Shown here: piece by piece, positions 16,658 to 39,838 of the stretch | Layout: each line of letters starts with the position of its first letter | Position numbering within the stretch: position 1 is the first letter of the stretch | Assembly: GCA_965223325.1 (NCBI GenBank) | Contig: CBDCWI010000002.1 | Coordinates: 1,824,001 to 1,888,000 of the forward strand | Direction of reading: 5' to 3' | Source of the DNA: Candidatus Multivoradales bacterium | GTDB lineage: Bacteria > Acidobacteriota > Thermoanaerobaculia > Multivoradales > Multivoraceae | DNA length: 64,000 bases | The notes under the pieces: generated by a model | The model's input: the letters and a program-made list of their open reading frames with translations, nothing else | Told to the model about the DNA's origin: nothing | Database searches by the model: none | Translations under genes and position numbers: made by a program

Positions 16658-17023
16658 TCACGCGAACAGGTCGATCAGCGCCATCGCCACGCCCAGGTAG
16701 GCACACTCGCCGACACCAAGAGCGATGAGGAGTACCAGGCCTGCGAACGGCAGGACGGGTACGCCACCGATCCGGGTCGCGCCTCTACCAACCGACTGAT
16801 CCCAGACCGCATAGGCGAGCGACGTGAGAAGACCGACCAACAGGGACAACCAGAAGGACAGTCGAGCTCTCGGCGAACGCCCGCTCGCCACACAGCCGCG
16901 CCACAGCTCATCGCGATGGGGTTCGAATGCAAGCATGCGGAGTCGTTCAGGCAACAACCGCCCCAGCAAAGTCGATGCTGGCGGCGGCGCATACGCGGGC
17001 ACTCGATCACGCATGTGAGCCAT
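16658..17023 (-). CDS. Small membrane protein associated with PadR
   Basis: PPP...LL..LLP...FEP N-terminus and 2 TMs; overlaps the PadR gene. Confidence 0.6.
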   Translation of the reverse strand: MAHMRDRVPAYAPPPASTLLGRLLPERLRMLAFEPHRDELWRGCVASGRSPRARLSFWLSLLVGLLTSLAYAVWDQSVGRGATRIGGVPVLPFAGLVLLIALGVGECAYLGVAMALIDLFA

Positions 17024-17318
17024 CGAACTGCGCGATGATGCGCCGGTGATGTTGTGCCGTCTGGTTCCGCGCTCGACGCCCGGCGGCAGTAGCCTGGTAG
17101 AAGCGCTCGCGCACGATCTGGCGGTCGATGACCTCCTGCTCGTACCAGCCGCTCACCAACTTGGCCTCTTCGAGGCGTGCCATCAGTCGATAGAAGGCGG
17201 GCCCGCTCTTCTCGAGGTCGAGACTTGCCAACCGGCTGCGCACCTCGCGACCCGAAATCGATTCGCCGGCGAGTACACAAAGCACTGCGAACTGCAAATG
17301 TGGAAGCGGAGCGGCCAT
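17007..17318 (-). CDS. PadR-family regulator
   Basis: LQFAVLCVL...SGPAFYRLMARLEEAKLV...RFYQATAAG. Confidence 0.85.
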   Translation of the reverse strand: MAAPLPHLQFAVLCVLAGESISGREVRSRLASLDLEKSGPAFYRLMARLEEAKLVSGWYEQEVIDRQIVRERFYQATAAGRRARNQTAQHHRRIIAQFDGSHA

Positions 17319-17449: not shown

Positions 17450-18373
17450 CTACGGACAGGCTGGCTCGCCGGCGAAGAACTCGCCCTTCTTGCCGGCGGT
17501 GATCGCCCAGCGGTGCAACCAGCTGATCCCGCCGACGCCGGTCCACTCGTCGGCCGAGGCGTAGGCTTCGTCAGCAATCGCCTCGTCCAGGCCAATGAAG
17601 CGGTAACCACGTTCCTTGTACATCGCGAGAAGTGCGTCGAGCGCCGCGGCGTTGAGATGGTTCTGATGGATGAGGAGGGTGTGGGGAATCGACCTGCCAA
17701 ACAACGCCTGTGTCTGTTCTTCGTAGTAGGCGGTCTTCTCTTCCATGTACGCCACGTAGGTGCTGGCGACGCGCTTGGCGAGGCCCGGGTCGTCCTTCCC
17801 GAGCGCTTCGCGGTACGCGGCCGCAAAAATCCACTCCGAGTTGTCGATGGTGACTGGCGCGACCCAGTAGCCGTTCTCTTCGAGGTGGCGACGCACCTGG
17901 TCGCGCGCTGCGATCGAAGTGCCGGTGTGCAGGTAGGGGTGGCGAAAAAACCGCAGGCCGGCGCCGCGGCTTTCCATCAGTGAGCGGGTCTGGCGCTCGC
18001 CGCGCTCGATGTCTTCGATGAAGCGCTCGGGCAGGGCGCGGTGAAGATCTAGGTGGGAGTAGCCATGGTTGCCGAGCTCGAGACCGGCATCGAGCCATGT
18101 CTCGAGCGTGCCCACCAGCGCGGGTACGACGGTGCCGCCGCGCTCGAGCTTCGCCTCGTTGACAAAACCGATCGCCGGCACTTCATGCCGGCGCAGCGCT
18201 TCGACGACCTGGTCGTTGATCCGAATGATCTCCGGCACCGCGGCCTGTGGACCCTGGAGCGGCAGGTCGTCGACCGTGATCACGATCGCACGCTCTCCTG
18301 GAGCAGCGCCGCAGAGTGGGACGGCGGTGAAACACAAGAGCGCTAGACAGCTAGCAAGGGTTTGCTTCAACAC
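17450..18373 (-). CDS. Secreted polysaccharide deacetylase (CE4/NodB-like)
   Basis: ITVDDLP, GNHGYSH, FRHPYL, LLIH; signal peptide. Confidence 0.88.
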   Translation of the reverse strand: MLKQTLASCLALLCFTAVPLCGAAPGERAIVITVDDLPLQGPQAAVPEIIRINDQVVEALRRHEVPAIGFVNEAKLERGGTVVPALVGTLETWLDAGLELGNHGYSHLDLHRALPERFIEDIERGERQTRSLMESRGAGLRFFRHPYLHTGTSIAARDQVRRHLEENGYWVAPVTIDNSEWIFAAAYREALGKDDPGLAKRVASTYVAYMEEKTAYYEEQTQALFGRSIPHTLLIHQNHLNAAALDALLAMYKERGYRFIGLDEAIADEAYASADEWTGVGGISWLHRWAITAGKKGEFFAGEPACP

Positions 18374-31068: not shown

Positions 31069-32538
31069 ATGGGCAGACTTTCGTCCGCGCCGACACCTCT
31101 AGCGTTCGAACCGCGCTCCGGCGAGCTCTTCGTCGATGGACGCGCGCGGCGGCTGACGCACAAGGCGACCACTGTGTTTGCCCTCCTACTGGAGCATTCA
31201 GGCGAAGTGGTAACCAGAGGCGAATTGCTCGAGAGAGCCTGGGATGGCCAAGCGATCTCAGACGACGCCATGACCACGGTGATCTACGAGCTTCGCAAGG
31301 CGCTCGGCGACAACGCCCGCAGGCCACGCTACATCGAGACGATTCGAAAGACTGGCTACCGCTATATCGGCCCGGCGCCTCGAAGCGCTCCTCTGCCGGA
31401 AGAACTCGATGGCGCCCTCCCGTCACCTGACGCCTTGGCCAAGCGGAAACGCCCCATCCTGGTCGCCGCCCTTCTACTCTCGATCCTCTCAGCGTTCGTT
31501 CTCGTCTCTGGGCCCGAGAGCAGAGCAGCGCTGAGCTCGAAGCCGGCACTAGAACTGTCGAGAGCGGGCGACGAGGGTCCTCCGCGGGAGGTGTGCGACC
31601 TCTTGCTGCGCAGTGAGATTTTGTCGCGCCGCCAAACCACAGGAGCGGTGCAGCAAGCCATTGACCACCTCGAACAGGCGATCGCGCGCGCTCCGGACTA
31701 CGGAGTTCTCCATCTCGCACTGAGCGACCTCTACGCGCGACATGGGGCAGGCTTGCTCGGGCTCGATCTCGACGAGGTCCAGAGCGTCACGGAGCGCTTG
31801 ACCCGAACAGCCGAAGCGAATGGCACCGATGAAGCAGCGCTGCTTCGCGCGCGGGCGACGCTCAGCTTCCTGCGGGACCACGACTGGGAACGAGCCGAAA
31901 GAGCCTATCTGCAATCACGCGACAAGAGTTCGTGTTCCACGCCAGCGATCGATCTCGGCTACCTCCAGTTGCTCAATGCGCTCGGCCGCCTGGACGAATC
32001 CAGAGCGCTCTTGCAGGACATCATCGACCAGACTCCCGGCAACAGCACGGTCCGTTTTGAGCTCGCGCGCGCTCACTTCTTCGCCCACGACTTCACGCAA
32101 GCCCTGGCTGAGCTCGAGTGGGTCAACGTTCTCGATCCCCATCACGCCCCAGCTCACTTCCTCTCAGGTCTCCTGCACACCCAACGAAACGAGCCAGAGC
32201 GCGCGCTGCTGTCCTTCGAGCGCGAGGCCCGCGCACAGGCTGCAACGCCTGCCGCTCTGTCCTCGCTACGGGAAAGCTACGCCAGCCGCGGGCTCGAAGG
32301 CCTGTTGGAATGGCGGCTACGCGAAGAAGCGACTCGCAATCGCGACCCGATCGAGCAGGCGCGCCTCCTCACCCTTCTCGGTGACCAGAGGCGCGCAACC
32401 GCCCAGCTGCGCCGCGCAGTCAAAGAGAGCCGCCCCTCTCTGGTCTGGATCTTCGCAGATCCGACCTTCGAACCCCTGCGACGCACCCCCGAGTTCCGCG
32501 AGCTGACGGCCAGCCTGTCCTTCGCTGCCGGCGGGTAA
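31069..32538 (+). CDS. CadC/ToxR-like winged-helix, TM, TPR one-component regulator
   Basis: GEVVTRGELL...IYELRKALGD...YIETIRKTGYR, TM, TPR helices, DPTFEPLR. Confidence 0.85.
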   Translation: MGRLSSAPTPLAFEPRSGELFVDGRARRLTHKATTVFALLLEHSGEVVTRGELLERAWDGQAISDDAMTTVIYELRKALGDNARRPRYIETIRKTGYRYIGPAPRSAPLPEELDGALPSPDALAKRKRPILVAALLLSILSAFVLVSGPESRAALSSKPALELSRAGDEGPPREVCDLLLRSEILSRRQTTGAVQQAIDHLEQAIARAPDYGVLHLALSDLYARHGAGLLGLDLDEVQSVTERLTRTAEANGTDEAALLRARATLSFLRDHDWERAERAYLQSRDKSSCSTPAIDLGYLQLLNALGRLDESRALLQDIIDQTPGNSTVRFELARAHFFAHDFTQALAELEWVNVLDPHHAPAHFLSGLLHTQRNEPERALLSFEREARAQAATPAALSSLRESYASRGLEGLLEWRLREEATRNRDPIEQARLLTLLGDQRRATAQLRRAVKESRPSLVWIFADPTFEPLRRTPEFRELTASLSFAAGG

Positions 32539-32685
32539 TCCGCCCAGCCTGGGAGCCCCTCGGTTCCGGACCCACCGCAGGGAGAACTCAGGAAGATCAC
32601 AGTTGAATCTCATGCTCGAGAGGTTGCGAGCGGTCACGCTGCACCCGTCGCCGAATCTTTCCGAACACCTGAAATCGAGCAACCC

Positions 32686-33786
32686 GTGTCGATCAACCTC
32701 GCGAACGTCTTCCCCATCGCCCCCCTTCTGGCTCCCGCGCTCCTGGCGCTGGTGCCAGCCGGCCCCGCTCTGGCTCAGGCGCCAAGCCAGGTCGAACCGG
32801 TTCGCTCCTGGACCTTCGATACCGAGGGCTGACTCTTCACCACTCCCACGGTCGTGGGGGACGCGGTGTTCGTCGGCTCATGCTCAGGTGTCGCCTACTC
32901 GCTCGATCGCTCATCCGGCGAAGTCACCTGGAGCTACGACACCAGGCAAGACGCCGGCCCCGCACAATTCCACGGCGACCCGGTAGTCATCGGAGGTCAA
33001 ATCGTCACCGGTAGCGACACCGCCGAACCGAGCTTCAGCTATTCCTTCGACAAGAAGACGGGCGAGCTCAACTGGAAGGTCGAGGGACACGTCATCGAAA
33101 CCGATGTGCTTTCGGTCGGCGGAGTGCTCTCCGGAAGGACCAGGACCGGCGCGCTGATAGGTATCGAACCCGCGACCGGCACCAAACTGTGGGCGGTGGA
33201 GGCCGAGGGTCGCACCTGTGGCGAACGCTCCTACTCGCCAGCGGCGAGGGGCAGAACGGTCTACAGCCCGCAGACCGATGGCACTCTGGTCGCAGTGGAT
33301 GCGACCTCTGGAGCGGTCCGTTGGAAGAGCACGGTGGGTTGTGCGAGCACGGCGGTGGCAATGGATGGGAACGCCCTGTTTCTCGGGGTCTCACCCGATC
33401 GCCTGATTCGCCTGGACCCCAACACCGGCGGGATACTCAGCGAACGAGAACTCAACGGCCGTGTCCGAGACCGCCTGACCCTGCTCCACGATCAGTTGGT
33501 GGCCCTGGTCGATGGTCACCGCGTCGTCGCCTTTGATCGTGATCTGAAGCAGACGCTGTGGACCCTGGAACACGGATCCGAGATCACCTCACCTCGACCG
33601 CTCCTGTGGCGCGAGACCATCCTGATCGGCGACAGGTCCGGCCAGCTCCTCGCCATTGCTCCCGAACGCGGAGACGTTGTGTGGAGTCTCGAGGTCGACG
33701 GCATCATTCGGGGGCTCGGGTCCGGTGGTAGCAATCTCTATGTTGGAACTCTGGAAGGCGTTCTCCACGCCCTGCGACTCGACTGA
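32686..33786 (+). CDS. Secreted PQQ-binding-like beta-propeller protein with in-frame UGA at codon 49 (candidate selenoprotein, or a nonsense allele)
   Basis: GTG 32686, signal peptide ...GPALA-Q, WTFDTEG-TGA-LFTTPTV in frame with ORF 32854-33786; repeated A-x-D-x-x-TG-x-x-x-W blades. Confidence 0.75.
32838..32868 (+). promoter_or_regulatory. Candidate bacterial SECIS hairpin
   Basis: CTCCCAC-GGTC-GTGGGGG upper stem-loop plus CACC/GGTG lower stem; loop begins after a 17-nt spacer from the UGA. Confidence 0.5.
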
Positions 33787-33956
33787 GCTGAGGCCCCGGC
33801 GCTTGTACATCTTCTGATGCGAGAGCGCGGCCGCGCCTGCCGGGACCTTCTCTTTGGTGGGCCGGGCCCTCGGCCCGTCGGGTTGCGCTGTCGCCCCGGG
33901 GCTCCGAGCTGCCGGTTGCCAGCGTCTGAGCCCGGTAGCAATAAACTAGCGGGCAC

Positions 33957-36782
33957 ATGACCAGCGCACAGGACCCCGGACCACGCCTCGAGAGAGGCCA
34001 GCGCGTCGGCCGTTACGAGGTGAGCAGCCTGTTGGGTGTCGGCGGGATGGGCGAGGTGTACCGAGCCCTGGACCTCGAAGTCAATCGCGAGGTGGCCCTC
34101 AAGGTGCTTCCCGCCCATCTCCACCTCGACGCCGAACGCCAGGCGCGTTTCGAGCGCGAGGCACGCCTCCTGGGCGCCCTGCGGCATCCGGGAATCGCCC
34201 GACTCTACGAAGTCGGCGAGCACCATGGCCTGCGTTTTCTGGCGATGGAGCTGGTCGAAGGCGAGTCGTTTGCCGACACCTTGAGGTCTCGGGGGCTCGA
34301 AGACAAGGAGCTTGTCCTCGACCTGTTTGCGCAACTGGCCGCAGCTCTCGAAACGGCCCACAAGAGTGGAATCATCCACCGCGATGTCAAGCCGTCGAAT
34401 CTGCGGCTCACGAAGGAGGACAACCGCCTCAAACTGCTCGACTTCGGCCTCGCCAAAGCCAGCGGCAGCCTCACCAGTGACGCGGTGCTCTCGGACTCGC
34501 CGACCCGCACCCAGCGTGACGCGGAGACTGCCACCGGAATGCTGGTCGGCACCGCTCCCTACATGAGCCCCGAGCAGGCACGCGGTCAGGAAGTCGACCA
34601 TCGCAGCGATATCTGGGCGTTTGGCTGCGTGCTCTTCGAAGCGCTTTCGGGGCGTCGACCCTTCGAGGGGCCGTCGCCATCGGACATTCTGGTGCGCATT
34701 CTGGGGCACGAGCCCGATTGGTCACTCTTGCCAGCCGACACCGAACCTTCCCTCCTCCGCCTGCTGCACAGTTGCCTGCGCAAGGAGAAGAAACTCCGCC
34801 TCCAGCACATGGGCGACGCGCGGGTGATCCTCGAAGATCTCGCCAGCGGCGAAAGCTCACCGGCACTCGAGGCGCTCGACCAGGCTTTCCTCAGCTCACA
34901 AAGTGCGCTCTCACCGGCGTCCACCTCGGGGCAGCGCAAACGCCGGCTGGCGGTGCTCGCTGCTACAGCGGTTCTCGCTGGATTACTCGGCGCTGGGACG
35001 TCTCTGGCGACCCGGCCTGATGCAGGAGACTCTGACCGCCGGGTCATCCGCTTCACCCTGCAGGAAGATTCCGCGACGGTCGGTTATCCCGTCGCCATCT
35101 CACCCGGCGGGCAGCGCATCGCCTACGACGGGAAGGGCGGCATCCACGTTCGCGATCTCGCCGGTGCCACTCTGTTGGTTGCCGACGGATCTCACCCAGT
35201 GTTCACGCCAGACGGTGGCTCGCTGTCCTATTCGACCTACGATCCGGGGTCGATCTGGAAGCACTCCCTCTCCGGCGGTACACCCGTCGACGTCGCAGCG
35301 CATGGCAACGCCAAGGGACACACCTGGGCAGGAGATGGCACGCTCGTTTTTGCCCCCTTCACTGAAGGTGGTCTCAGCCTGCTTCGACCGGGCGGTGAAG
35401 TGAGCGCCCTGACAGTTCCTGGACCGAGCGAGCACAGCCACCGATGGCCACGCTTCCTGCCCGGTGACGACGCTGTGCTCTTTACCGTATTGGACCTCGA
35501 AACCCAGGTTTGGCGGGTTGAGGTCGTTGAGGTCGCGAACGGAAAGCGCCGGGTGCTGGTCGACAACGCGTTGGCACCGCACTTTGTCGAAGTACCAGAC
35601 GATGTCGAAGTGCCAGGCCTCTCGGAGGGGCTCCTCTTGTTCGCCCAGGGGGAGACGATTCTCGCGGCACCCTTCGACCTCGATGCACTCGAAGTGATTG
35701 GAGAATCGGTACCTGTGCTGACTGGGGTTCCCAACCAGGGCGGCTACTCTGCATTTGACGTGGCGAAGAACGGAACTCTCGTCTACCGGACAGAGAACGT
35801 GCCAAGCAGCGATCGAGCCGGAAGAACGATGGCCTGGATCGACCGCACGGGAGCGGTCACACCCATCCCCACCCGCTGGAAAGACTTCAGCACGGTGGCT
35901 CTTTCTCCCGACGGGCGCAAGATCCTGATGCAGACCGGAAACGAAGTGCACAGCACCTGGCTCCACGATCTTGACAGTGGCACGACCACCTGGGCGACAC
36001 CAGGCTACGGTGGCTCGACCCCTGCGTGGGCACCTGACTCCGAGCACTTCGTCTTCAGCACCGGTGCACACCCCACGCCGAATCGCCGGACCGGTGCACG
36101 TGCCCTGTTCCTGGCGCCGATCGATCGCAGTCGTGAGCCGGAACAACTCACCATCACCGACTACGAGCACTTCCCCTCGTCGTTCTCACCTGACGGTCGC
36201 TTTCTCGCCTTCAGCGAGATCCGGACTCGTGACGCGCTCGACGTCTGGATGCTGCCGATGGACGAGGCAGACCGTCGGTCGCGACCGTTCCTCACGGGCC
36301 GAGCTGCGGAAGCTTCGGCGATGTTTTCGCCCGACGGCCGCTGGGTGGCGTACCTGTCGACCGAATCTGGTGAGCCTGCCATCTTCGTGACTCGTTTCGA
36401 CCCCGAGCAGGTCGTGGCCACCGACCCCGACGGAAGCGCACCGCCGCGTGAGCGCCACCGCATTTCAGCGGGGCAGGGGATGGCACCGCAGTGGTCGCCC
36501 GACGGTGAGTATCTCTACTACCGCGAAGGTCGGAACCCCCGCATTCTGCGCGTCAAGGTCCAGACCGAGCCCGCCTTCGAGGCCGGTCTCCCCGAAGTTG
36601 CAGTCGAGAACGAAAGACTCCTCGGCCCAATCTTCGAGCTGCCGAAGTGGACGCCCCATCCTGACGGTGAGCGATTCCTGGTTCGGCTCGGCGGCGGTGA
36701 CGACTGGGGCACGCGCTTGCATGTGGTCACCAACTGGTTCCGAGAACTCGAACAAACGCTTGCCGAATCCCACCAGCGGTGA
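33957..36782 (+). CDS. Hanks-type Ser/Thr kinase with TM and TolB/PD40 beta-propeller (kinase 1)
   Basis: GVGGMG, VALK, HRDVKPSN, DFG, YMSPE; SPDG repeats; VVTNWFREL. Confidence 0.93.
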   Translation: MTSAQDPGPRLERGQRVGRYEVSSLLGVGGMGEVYRALDLEVNREVALKVLPAHLHLDAERQARFEREARLLGALRHPGIARLYEVGEHHGLRFLAMELVEGESFADTLRSRGLEDKELVLDLFAQLAAALETAHKSGIIHRDVKPSNLRLTKEDNRLKLLDFGLAKASGSLTSDAVLSDSPTRTQRDAETATGMLVGTAPYMSPEQARGQEVDHRSDIWAFGCVLFEALSGRRPFEGPSPSDILVRILGHEPDWSLLPADTEPSLLRLLHSCLRKEKKLRLQHMGDARVILEDLASGESSPALEALDQAFLSSQSALSPASTSGQRKRRLAVLAATAVLAGLLGAGTSLATRPDAGDSDRRVIRFTLQEDSATVGYPVAISPGGQRIAYDGKGGIHVRDLAGATLLVADGSHPVFTPDGGSLSYSTYDPGSIWKHSLSGGTPVDVAAHGNAKGHTWAGDGTLVFAPFTEGGLSLLRPGGEVSALTVPGPSEHSHRWPRFLPGDDAVLFTVLDLETQVWRVEVVEVANGKRRVLVDNALAPHFVEVPDDVEVPGLSEGLLLFAQGETILAAPFDLDALEVIGESVPVLTGVPNQGGYSAFDVAKNGTLVYRTENVPSSDRAGRTMAWIDRTGAVTPIPTRWKDFSTVALSPDGRKILMQTGNEVHSTWLHDLDSGTTTWATPGYGGSTPAWAPDSEHFVFSTGAHPTPNRRTGARALFLAPIDRSREPEQLTITDYEHFPSSFSPDGRFLAFSEIRTRDALDVWMLPMDEADRRSRPFLTGRAAEASAMFSPDGRWVAYLSTESGEPAIFVTRFDPEQVVATDPDGSAPPRERHRISAGQGMAPQWSPDGEYLYYREGRNPRILRVKVQTEPAFEAGLPEVAVENERLLGPIFELPKWTPHPDGERFLVRLGGGDDWGTRLHVVTNWFRELEQTLAESHQR

Positions 36783-39700
36783 GCCAATCCAGCGACCCTT
36801 TCGAACGCTTCGAGGAGGCCGATGCGCTGCTCGTGACGCTCCTCGAACTCCCCTCGAAAGAACGGCTCGCGCACCTCCAGGAAGCGTGCCAGGGCGACCA
36901 GGAACTCGAAACCATGGTGCGGGGAATGCTCGCCGACGTGCCAGTCGTACCCACCGCCCCGGACGATGAGGCTTCGTCGGACAGTCTCCCGCTGAGCTCT
37001 TCTTCGCCAGCAGTTCCCCCACGCGACACCCTGCTCGAAATCGGTGCCCATGCCGGGCGTGTGATCGAACGCCTGGTCTGGGACGGCGAGAATGAACAAA
37101 CGAGCGCCGGCTCTCTGCCTGGCACCAGGCTCGGTGTCTACGAGATCGCCGAACGCGTTGGCGTTGGCGGCATGGGCGAGGTCTATCGCGCCCGCGATAC
37201 CCGGCTCGACCGCGACGTCGCGGTCAAAGTCCTACCCGACGGTTGGAAGAGCCACCCTGAGCGGGCGGCGCGTTTCGAGCGCGAAGCACGCCACCTGGCA
37301 ACCCTCAACCACCCCAACATCGCCGGCATTCACCACTTCGGCACCGAGAGCGGTAGCGCCTTTCTGGTCATGGAGCTGGTGTCTGGCGAGACCCTCTCCG
37401 AGGTCATCGCGCGCGGCCCGGTTCCGGCCGAGCGCGCCCTTCGGATCATGCGCCAGGTCGCAGAAGCACTCGAGGCGGCGCACTCCCAGGGCATCGTCCA
37501 TCGCGACCTGAAGCCCGCCAACGTCAAGATCACCCGCGACGACGAGATCAAGGTGCTCGACTTCGGGCTCGCCAAAGCGATGGAGCCGAGCGTCGCCGGT
37601 CTCGAAAGCCTGGCGCCTCGCGAGGGTGAAACCGAAAGCGGGCGCCGTGTGTACCCAACCGCCTCGGGGGTCATGCTCGGAACCCTGCCGTATATGAGTC
37701 CCGAGCAGGCGCGCGGCCAGGAGGTCGACCACCGTACCGACATCTGGGCCTTCGGTTGCCTGCTCTACGAGTTGCTCACCGGTCAACGCGCCTACTCAGG
37801 CCCCACTTCGTCCGATGTGTTGGCGCGCATCCTCGAACATCAACCCGACTGGTCACTCCTCGATGACGGCCTCGACCCGCGCGTGCGGAGGCTTCTCCGG
37901 CGCACTCTGCGCCATGACAAGCACTACCGGCTCCAGCACATCGGCGACGCGCGGGTGGCGATCGATGAAATCCTCGGCGGAGCTTTCGAGGAGCCGTTTC
38001 CTTCCGAGGCCCCCACGGCGCGAGCGGGCGGTGCACTTTCGAACCCGATGGCGCGCTGGGTCGCCGCCGCAGCTCTACTTCTCGCGGCATGTGGCACGAC
38101 CTGGTGGTTGAGCCGGACCCTGGCGACCGAGACCGCCGATCTCAGAAAGCCCACTCGATTCAAGATCGAATCACCGGTCCTCGCCGCGGACTCCTGGAGT
38201 GAGATCGCCGTCGCGCCAGACGGGCGAAGCGTGATCTTCCGTGCCACAGGGGCAGCCGACGAGGCGGCGGCTCCCTTGTCGATCTATCGCCTGGGTGAGG
38301 GTGCGACCGGCCCGGTCGCCGGCAGCGAGGGGGGCACGCAGCCCTTCTTCTCTCCCGATAGCGGGGCGATCGGCTTTTTCCACTCCGCCACCCATACGGT
38401 GCGCACCGTGTCGCTCGGCGGCGGCGCGCCGCGCGAAGTCGCCTTCGCTACGGACTTCCAGGGTGGGACGTGGACCGAGGACGACACGATCGTGTTTTCG
38501 CCCCACCGCAGCGATGGGTTGTTCGAGGTCAAAAGTAGCGGCGGCGAGGTCGCACGCCTGACGACGGTCGACCCCGGGCACCAGGAGCTCAGCCATCGCC
38601 ACCCGTGGGCACTTCCGGGAGGCCAAGCAGTTCTGTTCACCATCGCAACGCTCGACCTCGAGACCTGGGATCGGGCCCGCGTGGATGCCGTCGAGCTGTC
38701 CACTGGCGAACGCCGCTCGGTTCTGCCAACCGGCACGTCACCGCAGTTCGCGTCCTCGGGCCACCTCTTGTTTCAGCAGACCGAATCGCTGATGGCGGTG
38801 CCGCTCGACCTCGAGAGCCTGACCGCGGTCGGCGAGCCCGCTCGGGTCGTTCCGGACATTGCCGAATGGCGAGGTAAGGCAAGCTACGCAGTGTCGGCCA
38901 CCGGGACGCTCGTCTATGTCGCGGGCGCCGCACCCCCACCTCCCGCCGCACTCCACTGGGTCGACGCGGAAGGCAACAAGCAACCCTTCGCCTTCGAACC
39001 GTGGTGGATCGAGAGTCTCCGCATCTCGAGGGATCGGCGGCTGGTGCTCTCCCGGCTCGATCCGACGCCCGACATCTGGTTGCACGACACCGTGCGCAAA
39101 ACGACACCGGTCTTGACTCGTCGTGGCCACAACAGAACGCCGATCTGGACGCCAGGAGGGGACATCCTGCTCTACAGCTCTTCGACCGGCGGCGCGGCCC
39201 AGATCACCCGCCGCCCGGCCGATATGAGTCGCAACCCCGAGATCCTCACCGAAGGGGAGTGGGACAGCTGGCCGGGATCGGCCTCGGCCGACGGCCGCAC
39301 CCTTGCCTTCGTTCGGCTCCATCCCGAGACCGGCTACGACATCTGGTTCCTCGAGCTCGCCGGGTCCAGCGGCGACCGACCTGCCCCGCGCCCGTTCCTC
39401 ACCAACCCAGGCCTCGATGCCCAACCGGAGTTCTCTCCTGACGGCCGGTACCTGGCCTACACCTCCGCCGTGAGCGGACGATCCGAGGTGTACGTCGCGG
39501 CGGCGGCCGGGCGCGAGCCAGGGGTCAAAGTATCGAATGGCGGCGGGAGCGCCCCGGCATGGCATGGCGACGCCCTCTACTTCCGCCGCGGCCAGCGGAT
39601 GATGATGACTCTCCCTACAGGCGACGACAGTGGCCGTTTCGATCGCCCAAGCGAGCTCTTCGAGGAGGCGCTCTGGGAGTCCGACCCACCCGCCACCCGC

Positions 39701-39838
39701 ACTTGGGACATCGCGCCCGACGGCCGCTTCCTGCTGCCCCTCGTCAACCGGAAAGAGGCCGCCCCGAGCCCACCGATTCGGCTGGTCCTCGACTGGTGGA
39801 GTGAGCTCGAAGAGGCAGTCCCTCACCCGAACCGTTAG
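36779..39838 (+). CDS. Hanks-type Ser/Thr kinase with N-terminal helical extension, TM and PD40 propeller (kinase 2)
   Basis: ERLAHLQEACQGDQEL extension, [20 protein letters not shown] repeats; GTGA overlap. Confidence 0.93.
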   Translation: MSQSSDPFERFEEADALLVTLLELPSKERLAHLQEACQGDQELETMVRGMLADVPVVPTAPDDEASSDSLPLSSSSPAVPPRDTLLEIGAHAGRVIERLVWDGENEQTSAGSLPGTRLGVYEIAERVGVGGMGEVYRARDTRLDRDVAVKVLPDGWKSHPERAARFEREARHLATLNHPNIAGIHHFGTESGSAFLVMELVSGETLSEVIARGPVPAERALRIMRQVAEALEAAHSQGIVHRDLKPANVKITRDDEIKVLDFGLAKAMEPSVAGLESLAPREGETESGRRVYPTASGVMLGTLPYMSPEQARGQEVDHRTDIWAFGCLLYELLTGQRAYSGPTSSDVLARILEHQPDWSLLDDGLDPRVRRLLRRTLRHDKHYRLQHIGDARVAIDEILGGAFEEPFPSEAPTARAGGALSNPMARWVAAAALLLAACGTTWWLSRTLATETADLRKPTRFKIESPVLAADSWSEIAVAPDGRSVIFRATGAADEAAAPLSIYRLGEGATGPVAGSEGGTQPFFSPDSGAIGFFHSATHTVRTVSLGGGAPREVAFATDFQGGTWTEDDTIVFSPHRSDGLFEVKSSGGEVARLTTVDPGHQELSHRHPWALPGGQAVLFTIATLDLETWDRARVDAVELSTGERRSVLPTGTSPQFASSGHLLFQQTESLMAVPLDLESLTAVGEPARVVPDIAEWRGKASYAVSATGTLVYVAGAAPPPPAALHWVDAEGNKQPFAFEPWWIESLRISRDRRLVLSRLDPTPDIWLHDTVRKTTPVLTRRGHNRTPIWTPGGDILLYSSSTGGAAQITRRPADMSRNPEILTEGEWDSWPGSASADGRTLAFVRLHPETGYDIWFLELAGSSGDRPAPRPFLTNPGLDAQPEFSPDGRYLAYTSAVSGRSEVYVAAAAGREPGVKVSNGGGSAPAWHGDALYFRRGQRMMMTLPTGDDSGRFDRPSELFEEALWESDPPATRTWDIAPDGRFLLPLVNRKEAAPSPPIRLVLDWWSELEEAVPHPNR

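Follow-up and report, generated by a model that had tools for sequence, protein, structure and literature searches.

The locus and its reading frame

We analysed a stretch of 64,000 nucleotides (the window) from the genome of a Candidatus Multivoradales bacterium (Acidobacteriota; GenBank assembly GCA_965223325.1, contig CBDCWI010000002.1, positions 1,824,001 to 1,888,000 of the forward strand) and describe in it a gene for an exported beta-propeller of the pyrroloquinoline quinone (PQQ) repeat type, whose in-frame TGA is very probably read as selenocysteine (Sec, U). Positions are those of the window throughout. The open reading frame (ORF) called at this locus under translation table 11 runs from GTG 32854 to 33786 and encodes 310 amino acids (aa). 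The same frame is open upstream to GTG 32686, and coordinates and translation agree with an earlier note on this DNA, which had proposed a signal peptide and an internal TGA for it: from this GTG the frame runs to a stop at 33784-33786, itself a TGA, with a lone internal TGA at 32830-32832. The read-through product has 366 residues, Sec49 counted. Its N-terminus reads MSINLANVFPIAPLLAPALLALVPAGPALA, with the predicted cleavage before QAPS, and then WTFDTEG-U-LFTTPTVVGD; the peptide around Sec49 is SWTFDTEG-U-LFTTPTVVGDAVFVGSCSGVAYSLDR, and the start region of the mature protein is WTFDTEG-U-LFTTPTVVGDAVFVGSCSG. GTG 32686 is the sole in-frame start that retains the predicted signal peptide, and the called start, GTG 32854, sits within the 3' arm of the hairpin described below. 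In the homologues, too, the part before the TGA encodes a leader, of the classical signal or the lipoprotein-like kind, and in two loci (L007 and L008) Shine-Dalgarno-like purine runs stand ahead of it.

For an independent check of the TGA, which the earlier note had called for, we turned to contigs from three sequencing runs, which represent three samples within one study and may be where this DNA came from. They span 32600-33800 with 0 differences each, so the TGA is not an assembly slip. Since the gene's own terminator is TGA, this codon is an ordinary stop in the host organism.

Conservation of the in-frame TGA and extent of the family

We performed a six-frame search of 61 related genomes using the read-through protein as a query (P0001, with one extra C-terminal residue from the terminal TGA written as U, which leaves the conclusions unaffected). 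The six top matches, namely the gene itself and five homologues at 32-47% identity, carry one TGA each, and weaker matches (<= 27% identity) carry none. In a sample of 401 genomes from across the phylum, a profile search yielded 12 matches in 11 genomes at E <= 1e-50; 10 of these genomes carry the TGA and one lacks it. A scan with one genome per prokaryotic species, run with a 5-row alignment (A2), added two loci (L085 and L088), four of its six best loci having been counted already; its best loci come from records titled Thermoanaerobaculia or Acidobacteriota metagenome genomes. In total, 15 genomes share the TGA column, with homologues as distant as about 30% identity (range 30-47%), and in all cases the codon lies within the motif W-x-x-[DKE]-[TSA]-x-G-U-[VLI]-[FYS]-x-x-P-[TA]-V. 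Two of the genomes used here, G083 (one of the 15) and G209, are unpublished, and publication of the G209 data is subject to the depositors' permission. No Trp, Arg or Gly was found at the Sec column among the homologues compared. A divergent relative from G209 (L045) carries Ala in place of Sec and Asn in place of Cys66, keeps the F-H motif described below, and retains a weak hairpin remnant (CCCAC-GGUGAU-GGG, -6.2 kcal/mol).

Searching public protein sets with the read-through protein gave 41 matches at E <= 1e-10, including 26 family clusters (P0002-P0027) that span 83-86% of the query. All 22 aligned family clusters start with the residue that follows U (M/V-F-T-T-P-T-V-V-G-D) or downstream of it; an NCBI-sourced record, P0009, is for instance a truncated 321-aa "PQQ-binding-like beta-propeller repeat protein". 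A profile search against 1.84 billion representatives yielded 13,564 matches at E <= 1e-30, mostly large generic PQQ-repeat proteins. The best 150 of these hold dozens of 50%-identity family clusters; 47 of the 48 single-domain family members among them begin at or after the U column (35 at the residue after U or at most 3 residues from it). The family is thus large, and it is found mostly in Acidobacteriota-type metagenome genomes. One protein, P0189, is full length (391 aa) with Cys at the column (...ILWAFDAKG-C-IYSSPAIRGDLVFLAPCRG), and a search using it as a query gave two further Cys forms, P0191 and P0192; all three read G-C-[IL]-[YF]-SSPAI at this site. Among the 76 matches of that search that we examined, 3 are Cys forms and 72 are fragments or start no earlier than the U column, the remainder comprising P0263, whose N-terminus is unalignable, and the generic PQQ protein P0262. 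The question raised in the earlier note, whether homologues keep TGA or Cys at this position, is thus answered by TGA in 15 genomes and Cys in three metagenomic clusters.

From 110 rows (12 TGA-verified sequences, 91 truncated calls, 3 Cys forms, 1 Ala form and 3 outgroups) we then built a quick maximum-likelihood tree, which covers a subset of the P0189-search matches, is rooted at the midpoint and has weak deep branches. The Cys forms make up a single clade (Shimodaira-Hasegawa-like approximate likelihood ratio test, 100) nested beside truncated forms, and TGA-verified rows occur in every major clade, including a pair adjoining the outgroups. This topology suggests that Sec is ancestral, with one Sec-to-Cys change. 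Sec is the normal residue of the family and probably the ancestral one, and Cys is rare. Some members extend about 130-280 residues past the propeller at the C-terminus (L038 of G379, P0088, P0092, P0129, P0146, P0172 and P0186); a Pfam scan of the G379 frame gave no further Pfam family in this extension.

A hairpin of the SECIS type follows the TGA

Directly 3' of the UGA lies a hairpin resembling a selenocysteine insertion sequence (SECIS), with every part located where the earlier note had placed it. An upper stem of 7 bp, CUCCCAC (32843-32849) with GUGGGGG (32854-32860), closes the loop GGUC (32850-32853), a lower stem pairs CACC (32838-32841) with GGUG (32865-32868), and 17 nt separate the UGA from the loop. 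In an RNAfold prediction of 32825-32900 this hairpin is the minimum free energy (MFE) structure, at -31 kcal/mol; the minimal hairpin of the window gene has an energy of -11.5 kcal/mol. Each of the 15 genes has a 5-7-bp stem in the same register, with minimal hairpins of -8.3 to -14.5 kcal/mol. The loop is GGUC in 11 of them, and in one gene each GGUCC (or GUC with an extra closing pair), AGUUC, AGUU and GUC/UGUCA. A same-register stem with a G-first loop was found in 0 of the 10 scored relatives that lack Sec, one of which (L052) has a 7-bp stem but the loop ACUG.

To assess pairing and covariation, we used a 13-row alignment (A3) and 500 shuffles. Paired cells amount to 83.5% (75.7 +/- 2.1 in the shuffles) and the covariation score is 0.299 (0.150 in the shuffles), values that 0 of the 500 shuffles equalled in either case, which are comparisons among related sequences and not probabilities. 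Sliding the 3' partner by 1-3 columns drops the paired cells to 45-68%. Compensatory changes are seen at single pairs: five rows have A-U at pair 28-35 and five have G-C, and pair 24-39 takes five standard pair types. In the window gene, Thr55 (ACG) pairs with Val57 (GUG), and other genomes have Ala and Ala (GCG and GCG) at these positions, so that the peptide alternates between PTVVG and PAVAG because of the pairing in the hairpin. This coupling of Thr with Val and of Ala with Ala is what RNA pairing would predict, and it would not obviously be required by the function of the protein. The hairpin is therefore kept in all 15 genes, with compensatory changes, which is what the earlier note had wished to see in homologues.

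The model for bacterial SECIS elements (bSECIS), for which we follow the Fig. 2 legend of PMC13188914, has a loop of 3-9 nt, a stem of 4-16 bp, G in the first two loop positions, a distance of 16-37 nt from the UGA and an MFE of <= -7.5 kcal/mol, and the window hairpin satisfies these constraints as given in that legend. Searching positions 32750-32950 against Rfam gave no match at E <= 10, in a collection where short bacterial SECIS hairpins may be unmodelled.

The genome encodes a selenocysteine machinery

The assembly (6.69 Mb in 2 contigs, 98.2% complete) holds the genes that the earlier note had proposed to look for. We found SelA (4.3e-110), a SelB-specific winged-helix domain (6.6e-17) within a 648-codon frame, SelD (222.8 bits, above the curated cut-off) and one tRNA-SeC with the anticodon tca. 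The SelD match (contig 1, 1389082-1390062) lies in a 769-codon open frame without an internal stop or Sec codon, and this SelD may be fused to another domain. SelA was also found in 13 of 13 tested TGA-form genomes (the genomes of L085 and L088 lying outside the test), an association with the TGA form that is weak, as SelA is present in 301 of the 401 phylum-sample genomes as well.

The genome also contains a gene for an FdhA-type molybdopterin oxidoreductase (contig 2, TGA at 861665, minus strand) with the Sec site CAAT-U-HAPTVAG. Its SECIS has the 7-bp stem GGUCGCC/GGUGACC and the loop GGUCU, 18 nt past the UGA, and the candidate hairpin, being near-identical to it, looks readable by the same SelB. 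The two cases share the features of fdhF-type decoding by SelB and SECIS, that is, a G+C-rich stem of 7 bp within the coding sequence and a GGUC(U) loop at 17 or 18 nt; the loop of E. coli fdhF reportedly also contains GGUC. They differ in the host protein, which is a molybdopterin oxidoreductase in one case and an exported propeller, with Sec near the N-terminus of the mature protein, in the other.

The protein is a propeller with a conserved polar set

The read-through protein matches Pfam PQQ_2 (PF13360) at 3.4e-31, with 109.1 bits against a gathering threshold of 27.6. We modelled it with AlphaFold2 from a 31-row alignment, which gave eight four-stranded blades with a mean predicted local distance difference test score (pLDDT) of 90.3 and a predicted template-modelling (TM) score of 0.85. 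The segment before the UGA (residues 38-45) is modelled as a propeller strand, with a mean pLDDT of 95 for residues 41-50 and of about 50 for residues 1-30. Using Foldseek, the top match is BamB (8orr; TM 0.82, root-mean-square deviation 2.4, 21% identity).

Invariant in 31 of 31 sequences are C66, G68, G78, F95, H96, D111, W130 and several more Gly and Trp, and D85, R342 and P305 are retained in at least 90% of them. Sec is present in 10 of 10 full-length rows of the alignment, and Cys66 also in all 48 representatives from the library of 1.84 billion proteins. Cys66 is the Cys that the earlier note had pointed out 17 residues past the TGA, in GSCSG. That note had set beside it a Cys of another blade (VG-C-AS), which is indeed present in the window protein but is kept in 3 of 5 aligned full-length homologues and is not family-wide. 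The family-wide partners of Sec49 would instead appear to be Cys66, His96, Asp111 and Arg342.

In the model, H96 stands at the start of strand 94-102. From the blade assignment we infer that three of the conserved residues stand at the entry to a strand A: Sec49 on the stretch that links the N-terminal strand to blade 1, and His96 and Arg342 where strand A begins in blades 2 and 8, respectively. Two others would occupy B-C turns, Cys66 that of blade 1 and Asp111 that of blade 2. Four-stranded antiparallel blades have their B-C turns on the same face of the propeller as their D-to-A connections, and Sec49, Cys66, His96, Asp111 and Arg342 should therefore form one site around blades 8, 1 and 2.

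Weighing selenocysteine against other readings of the UGA

By computation, the locus combines a conserved UGA, a covarying hairpin, a Sec machinery, a Sec/Cys column, a propeller fold and a conserved polar cluster. We consider it very probable that UGA 32830 is decoded as Sec in an exported eight-bladed BamB-like propeller. The earlier note had already proposed that this UGA encodes Sec, and its proposal is borne out by the TGA column, the covarying hairpin, the Sec machinery and the Sec/Cys pair, with none of the contrary findings that it had listed turning up.

Several points weigh against this reading. The case for Sec decoding is computational throughout. The fold of the single sequence is only mildly unusual (z = -1.87 against shuffles) and would be unconvincing alone, the comparison of homologues being what lifts the hairpin beyond chance; the shuffle figures of that comparison are themselves no probabilities. 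In 3 of its 13 rows (G046, G167 and G143) the stem pairs only with the 3' arm moved by 1 nt, the peptide at the shifted stem being PTVRG or PAVSG. The hairpin moreover overlaps the most conserved peptide of the family, and its conservation is in part driven by the protein. The window gene has a GTG start without a clear Shine-Dalgarno sequence and a leader without a basic residue. In G255, the copy carries a second in-frame TGA (L039 nt 1900; G255:C86, about 31714) with no hairpin after it; it falls on a column that is Trp (FQDN-W) in the close relative G093. Either a nonsense mutation or an error probably accounts for it, and this copy may be broken. A second copy in G046 (L035 1474-2689; G046:C5:222000-226000) has the TGA and a strong hairpin with an unconserved pre-TGA peptide, loses similarity after about 250 residues and has the look of a paralogue in decay. 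With 3 clusters vs > 100 truncated ones, Cys forms are very rare; according to the selenoprotein literature, nearly all families have abundant Cys homologues, and the propeller family would be exceptional in their scarcity. The placement of the polar residues on one face rests on blade topology, not on a Sec49-Cys66 distance. Finally, no conserved operon surrounds the propeller gene at the loci compared, and the neighbours give no consistent functional hint.

If the TGA were a nonsense mutation or an error of sequencing or assembly, the locus would be a pseudogene, or the real gene would be the 310-codon ORF from 32854. Gene callers do report the 310-aa ORF (P0002), and broken copies exist, with the extra TGA at the Trp column in G255 and the decayed second copy in G046. 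The same TGA column in 15 genomes at 30-47% identity, the exact match of the contigs of three runs, and the conservation upstream of both the pre-TGA peptide W-x-x-D-T-x-G and the signal peptide nevertheless make this explanation close to negligible, and an ORF starting at 32854 would lose the export signal and the first propeller strands. A pair of genes, in which a leader peptide ends at the TGA, the propeller is re-initiated after it and the hairpin acts as a coupling or pausing element, is very unlikely. It would agree with a potential GTG start directly after the TGA in 7 of 13 sequences and with gene callers placing the start just after the TGA for some members (35 of the 48 representatives), but the codon after the TGA is CTC, CTG, CTT or ATC in the other 6, three Cys-form relatives are continuous proteins across the position, and the segment before the TGA is modelled confidently as a propeller strand. 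The re-initiated product would also be without a signal peptide, though every upstream part encodes one.

Computation does not distinguish which residue is inserted, and near-cognate decoding stimulated by the hairpin could in principle place Trp, Cys or Gly at the UGA; one relative (in the unpublished genome G209) has Ala at the column. We regard such read-through as quite improbable. In loop, stem length and spacing the hairpin matches the FdhA-type SECIS of the same genome, and it conforms to the bSECIS model; Cys is the sole sense codon at the column within the family proper, and TGA is the ordinary stop of the same gene; the presence of SelA in all 13 tested TGA-form genomes adds a weak argument, given how widespread SelA is in the phylum.

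Features of the locus and gene neighbourhood

Coordinates of the gene, its elements and the adjoining genes are collected in the table below.

Features of the propeller locus in the window, with the evidence for each
Feature	Position	Strand	Evidence
Whole selenoprotein gene, 366 codons including Sec49	32686..33786	+	Frame, translation, Pfam PQQ_2, AlphaFold model
Predicted signal peptide, residues 1-30 (ending PAGPALA, before QAPS)	32686..32775	+	Cleavage site by eye
In-frame TGA, predicted Sec49	32830..32832	+	TGA column in 15 genomes, Cys in 3 clusters, contigs of 3 runs
SECIS-type hairpin	32838..32868	+	Fold, covariation, bSECIS constraints, likeness to FdhA-type SECIS
Cys66 in S-C-S-G turn, likely partner of Sec49	32881..32883	+	Family-wide invariance
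His96 in F-H-G-D-P motif, start of blade 2	32971..32973	+	Invariance, model
CadC-like membrane regulator (winged-helix Trans_reg_C and TPR), upstream neighbour (context)	31069..32538	+	Pfam
Two Ser/Thr kinases with PD40 (TolB-like) repeats, downstream neighbours (context)	33957..39838	+	Pfam Pkinase and PD40

To compare neighbourhoods, we took about 6 kb on either side of the propeller gene from 11 other genomes and scanned 88 ORFs against Pfam, which were chosen greedily by length in G+C-rich DNA, so that some are spurious. The earlier note had described the propeller as placed between a CadC-like sensor and a kinase cluster. That setting is present at the locus, but it is no mark of the family: a CadC-like gene stands immediately before the propeller gene in the three closest genomes alone (among 13 context loci, a homologue is directly upstream only in L066, at 33% identity and 3.5e-43, and in L067), and the downstream kinases are not conserved beside the homologues compared. 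A small Cupin_7/DUF4437 (ChrR-type) gene adjoins the propeller gene in 3 of the 11 other genomes (L071 2211-6204 in G255, L072 5091-7647 in G093 and L073 3464-3919 in G167), and a UbiE-type methyltransferase is nearby in 2. In G255 the cupin gene is preceded by genes for a UbiE-type methyltransferase, a DinB_2 and FGE-sulfatase protein (EgtB-like) and a GT1 glycosyltransferase; these genes may be akin to senA and senB, the selenoneine genes. The remaining loci show a mixture of efflux, methyltransferase and kinase genes.

Elsewhere in the window, the earlier note had read a nonsense codon at 17450 as an example of lesions in this sequence. It is in fact the TAG that regularly ends an ORF on the minus strand (17450..18373, 307 codons) and has no bearing on whether such lesions occur; the next minus-strand ORF, 16675..17280, is in a different frame.

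Comparison with known propeller proteins

BamB (YfgL), an eight-bladed lipoprotein that serves in the assembly of outer-membrane beta-barrels, resembles the window protein in being its best structural match, in having PQQ_2 repeats and in being exported. The window protein falls below the BamB cut-offs (115 bits vs 285.2 for TIGR03300; 79.8 vs 423 for NF008351), and no genes of the beta-barrel assembly machinery (BAM) were found beside the propeller gene among the neighbours at the loci compared. To our knowledge, the conserved Sec/Cys/His/Asp/Arg set that is present in the window family is not known from BamB. In the whole genome, no frame exceeds the TIGR03300 cut-off, and 55 BamB-model matches are found in dozens of PQQ-repeat frames, many of them kinase-fused or very long. 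We also considered, and rejected, a TGA in another PQQ-like frame (contig 1, 536254) as a Sec candidate; it is the ordinary stop of that gene.

PQQ-dependent alcohol and methanol dehydrogenases share the repeat type and the eight-bladed propeller, with partial matches to TIGR03075 and to quinoproteins in the PDB. Here too the scores are below the cut-offs (54.7 vs 480.05 for TIGR03075; 30 vs 832.65 for TIGR03074), the mature protein has about 335 residues vs about 570-600 in solved quinoprotein enzymes, and only single blades align. Tetrathionate hydrolase of Acidithiobacillus ferrooxidans (6l8a and 7cqy) gave TM 0.76-0.79 and a profile match of about 5e-23, at 16% identity, a likeness to the generic fold only. 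This enzyme acts outside the cytoplasm and is not known to need a cofactor, and we know of no Sec or Cys pair in it. It shows that a propeller fold can act enzymatically on sulfur oxyanions.

A proposed function for the Sec/Cys pair

During translation, SelB with Sec-tRNA(Sec) would bind the hairpin, which starts 10 nt past the UGA and has its loop at 17 nt, and Sec49 would be inserted. After export, Sec49 may serve as the nucleophile and Cys66 as the resolving residue, so that a selenenylsulfide would form, and His, Asp and Arg would bind or activate a small, possibly anionic, periplasmic substrate. The most likely function would be selenenylsulfide cycling of Sec49 and Cys66 on such a small substrate, which may be an oxyanion or some compound of sulfur or selenium. 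A Sec-Cys redox or metal site had already been suggested in the earlier note.

The main functional rival to this redox cycling is that Sec49, Cys66, His96 and Asp111 bind a metal or metalloid, in a sensor, a chaperone or a metalloenzyme centre, which we regard as possible though doubtful. A Sec/Cys/His/Asp set is a plausible metal site, and, according to the review PMC13188914, metals take part in about 70% of the ligand interactions predicted for selenoprotein families. Metal-related genes also occur within 6 kb in 4 of 12 loci, encoding a CusB/HlyD-type protein with a YtkA domain (G008), a cation-efflux protein and a multicopper oxidase (G255), an AcrB-family pump (G388) and Nramp (G051). 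These neighbours vary by locus, however, with none directly adjacent in more than one genome, and the neighbours do not decide between the redox-pair and metal-site readings. The divergent relative in the unpublished genome G209 loses Sec and Cys66 together and keeps the His, which fits a Sec-Cys pair acting jointly better than a metal site, as a single case.

A more far-reaching form of the redox reading is that the family represents a new class of cofactor-free extracytoplasmic enzymes, bare propellers in which Sec49 and Cys66 as a selenenylsulfide pair, with His96, Asp111 and Arg342 beside them, reduce or transfer a small sulfur, selenium or other oxyanion substrate in the periplasm, and in which Sec is ancestral and almost obligatory. 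The latter part would follow from Cys having replaced Sec in only one small clade. We put this forward tentatively and hold it, as a whole, to be rather unlikely. If true, this would be one of the few selenoprotein families not derived from a Cys enzyme.

Novelty and implications

Sec insertion itself is textbook knowledge, and the host protein family is the new part. Table 1 of a review of May 2026 (PMC13188914) gives 119 prokaryotic selenoprotein families and subfamilies. The propeller family shows the features that served there as computational criteria, namely conservation of the TGA, a SECIS-like hairpin and Sec/Cys pairing among homologues; in contrast to nearly all of the listed families, its Cys forms are far rarer than its Sec forms. 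There is no PQQ, BamB or propeller entry in that table, and no selenoprotein model in NCBIfam (release 20) matches the window protein. We found no propeller, PQQ or BamB-type selenoprotein in the texts of PMC13188914, deep-Sep and BSepDB, whose supplementary tables may list more, nor, by term search, any mention of one in the accessible portions of the Haft preprint, PMC9312934, PMC2398784 and PMC5029168. Searching the literature for bacterial propeller or PQQ selenoproteins returned only eukaryotic or unrelated papers. The earlier note's remark that no selenoprotein family with a propeller fold is known thus agrees with Table 1 of PMC13188914, with NCBIfam and with the term searches, and the family is absent from the searchable selenoprotein catalogues. 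The deep-Sep authors state that the method may drop families without Cys homologues; since Cys forms are rare here, searches for Cys/Sec pairs and deep-Sep tend to miss this family.

Members of the family are systematically mis-annotated, the export signal, the first strand and the presumed catalytic residue being lost in nearly every gene call that we examined. The family thereby offers a test case for the incompleteness of known selenoproteomes, especially those of soil Acidobacteriota, and it is a candidate for new selenium-dependent chemistry outside the cytoplasm.

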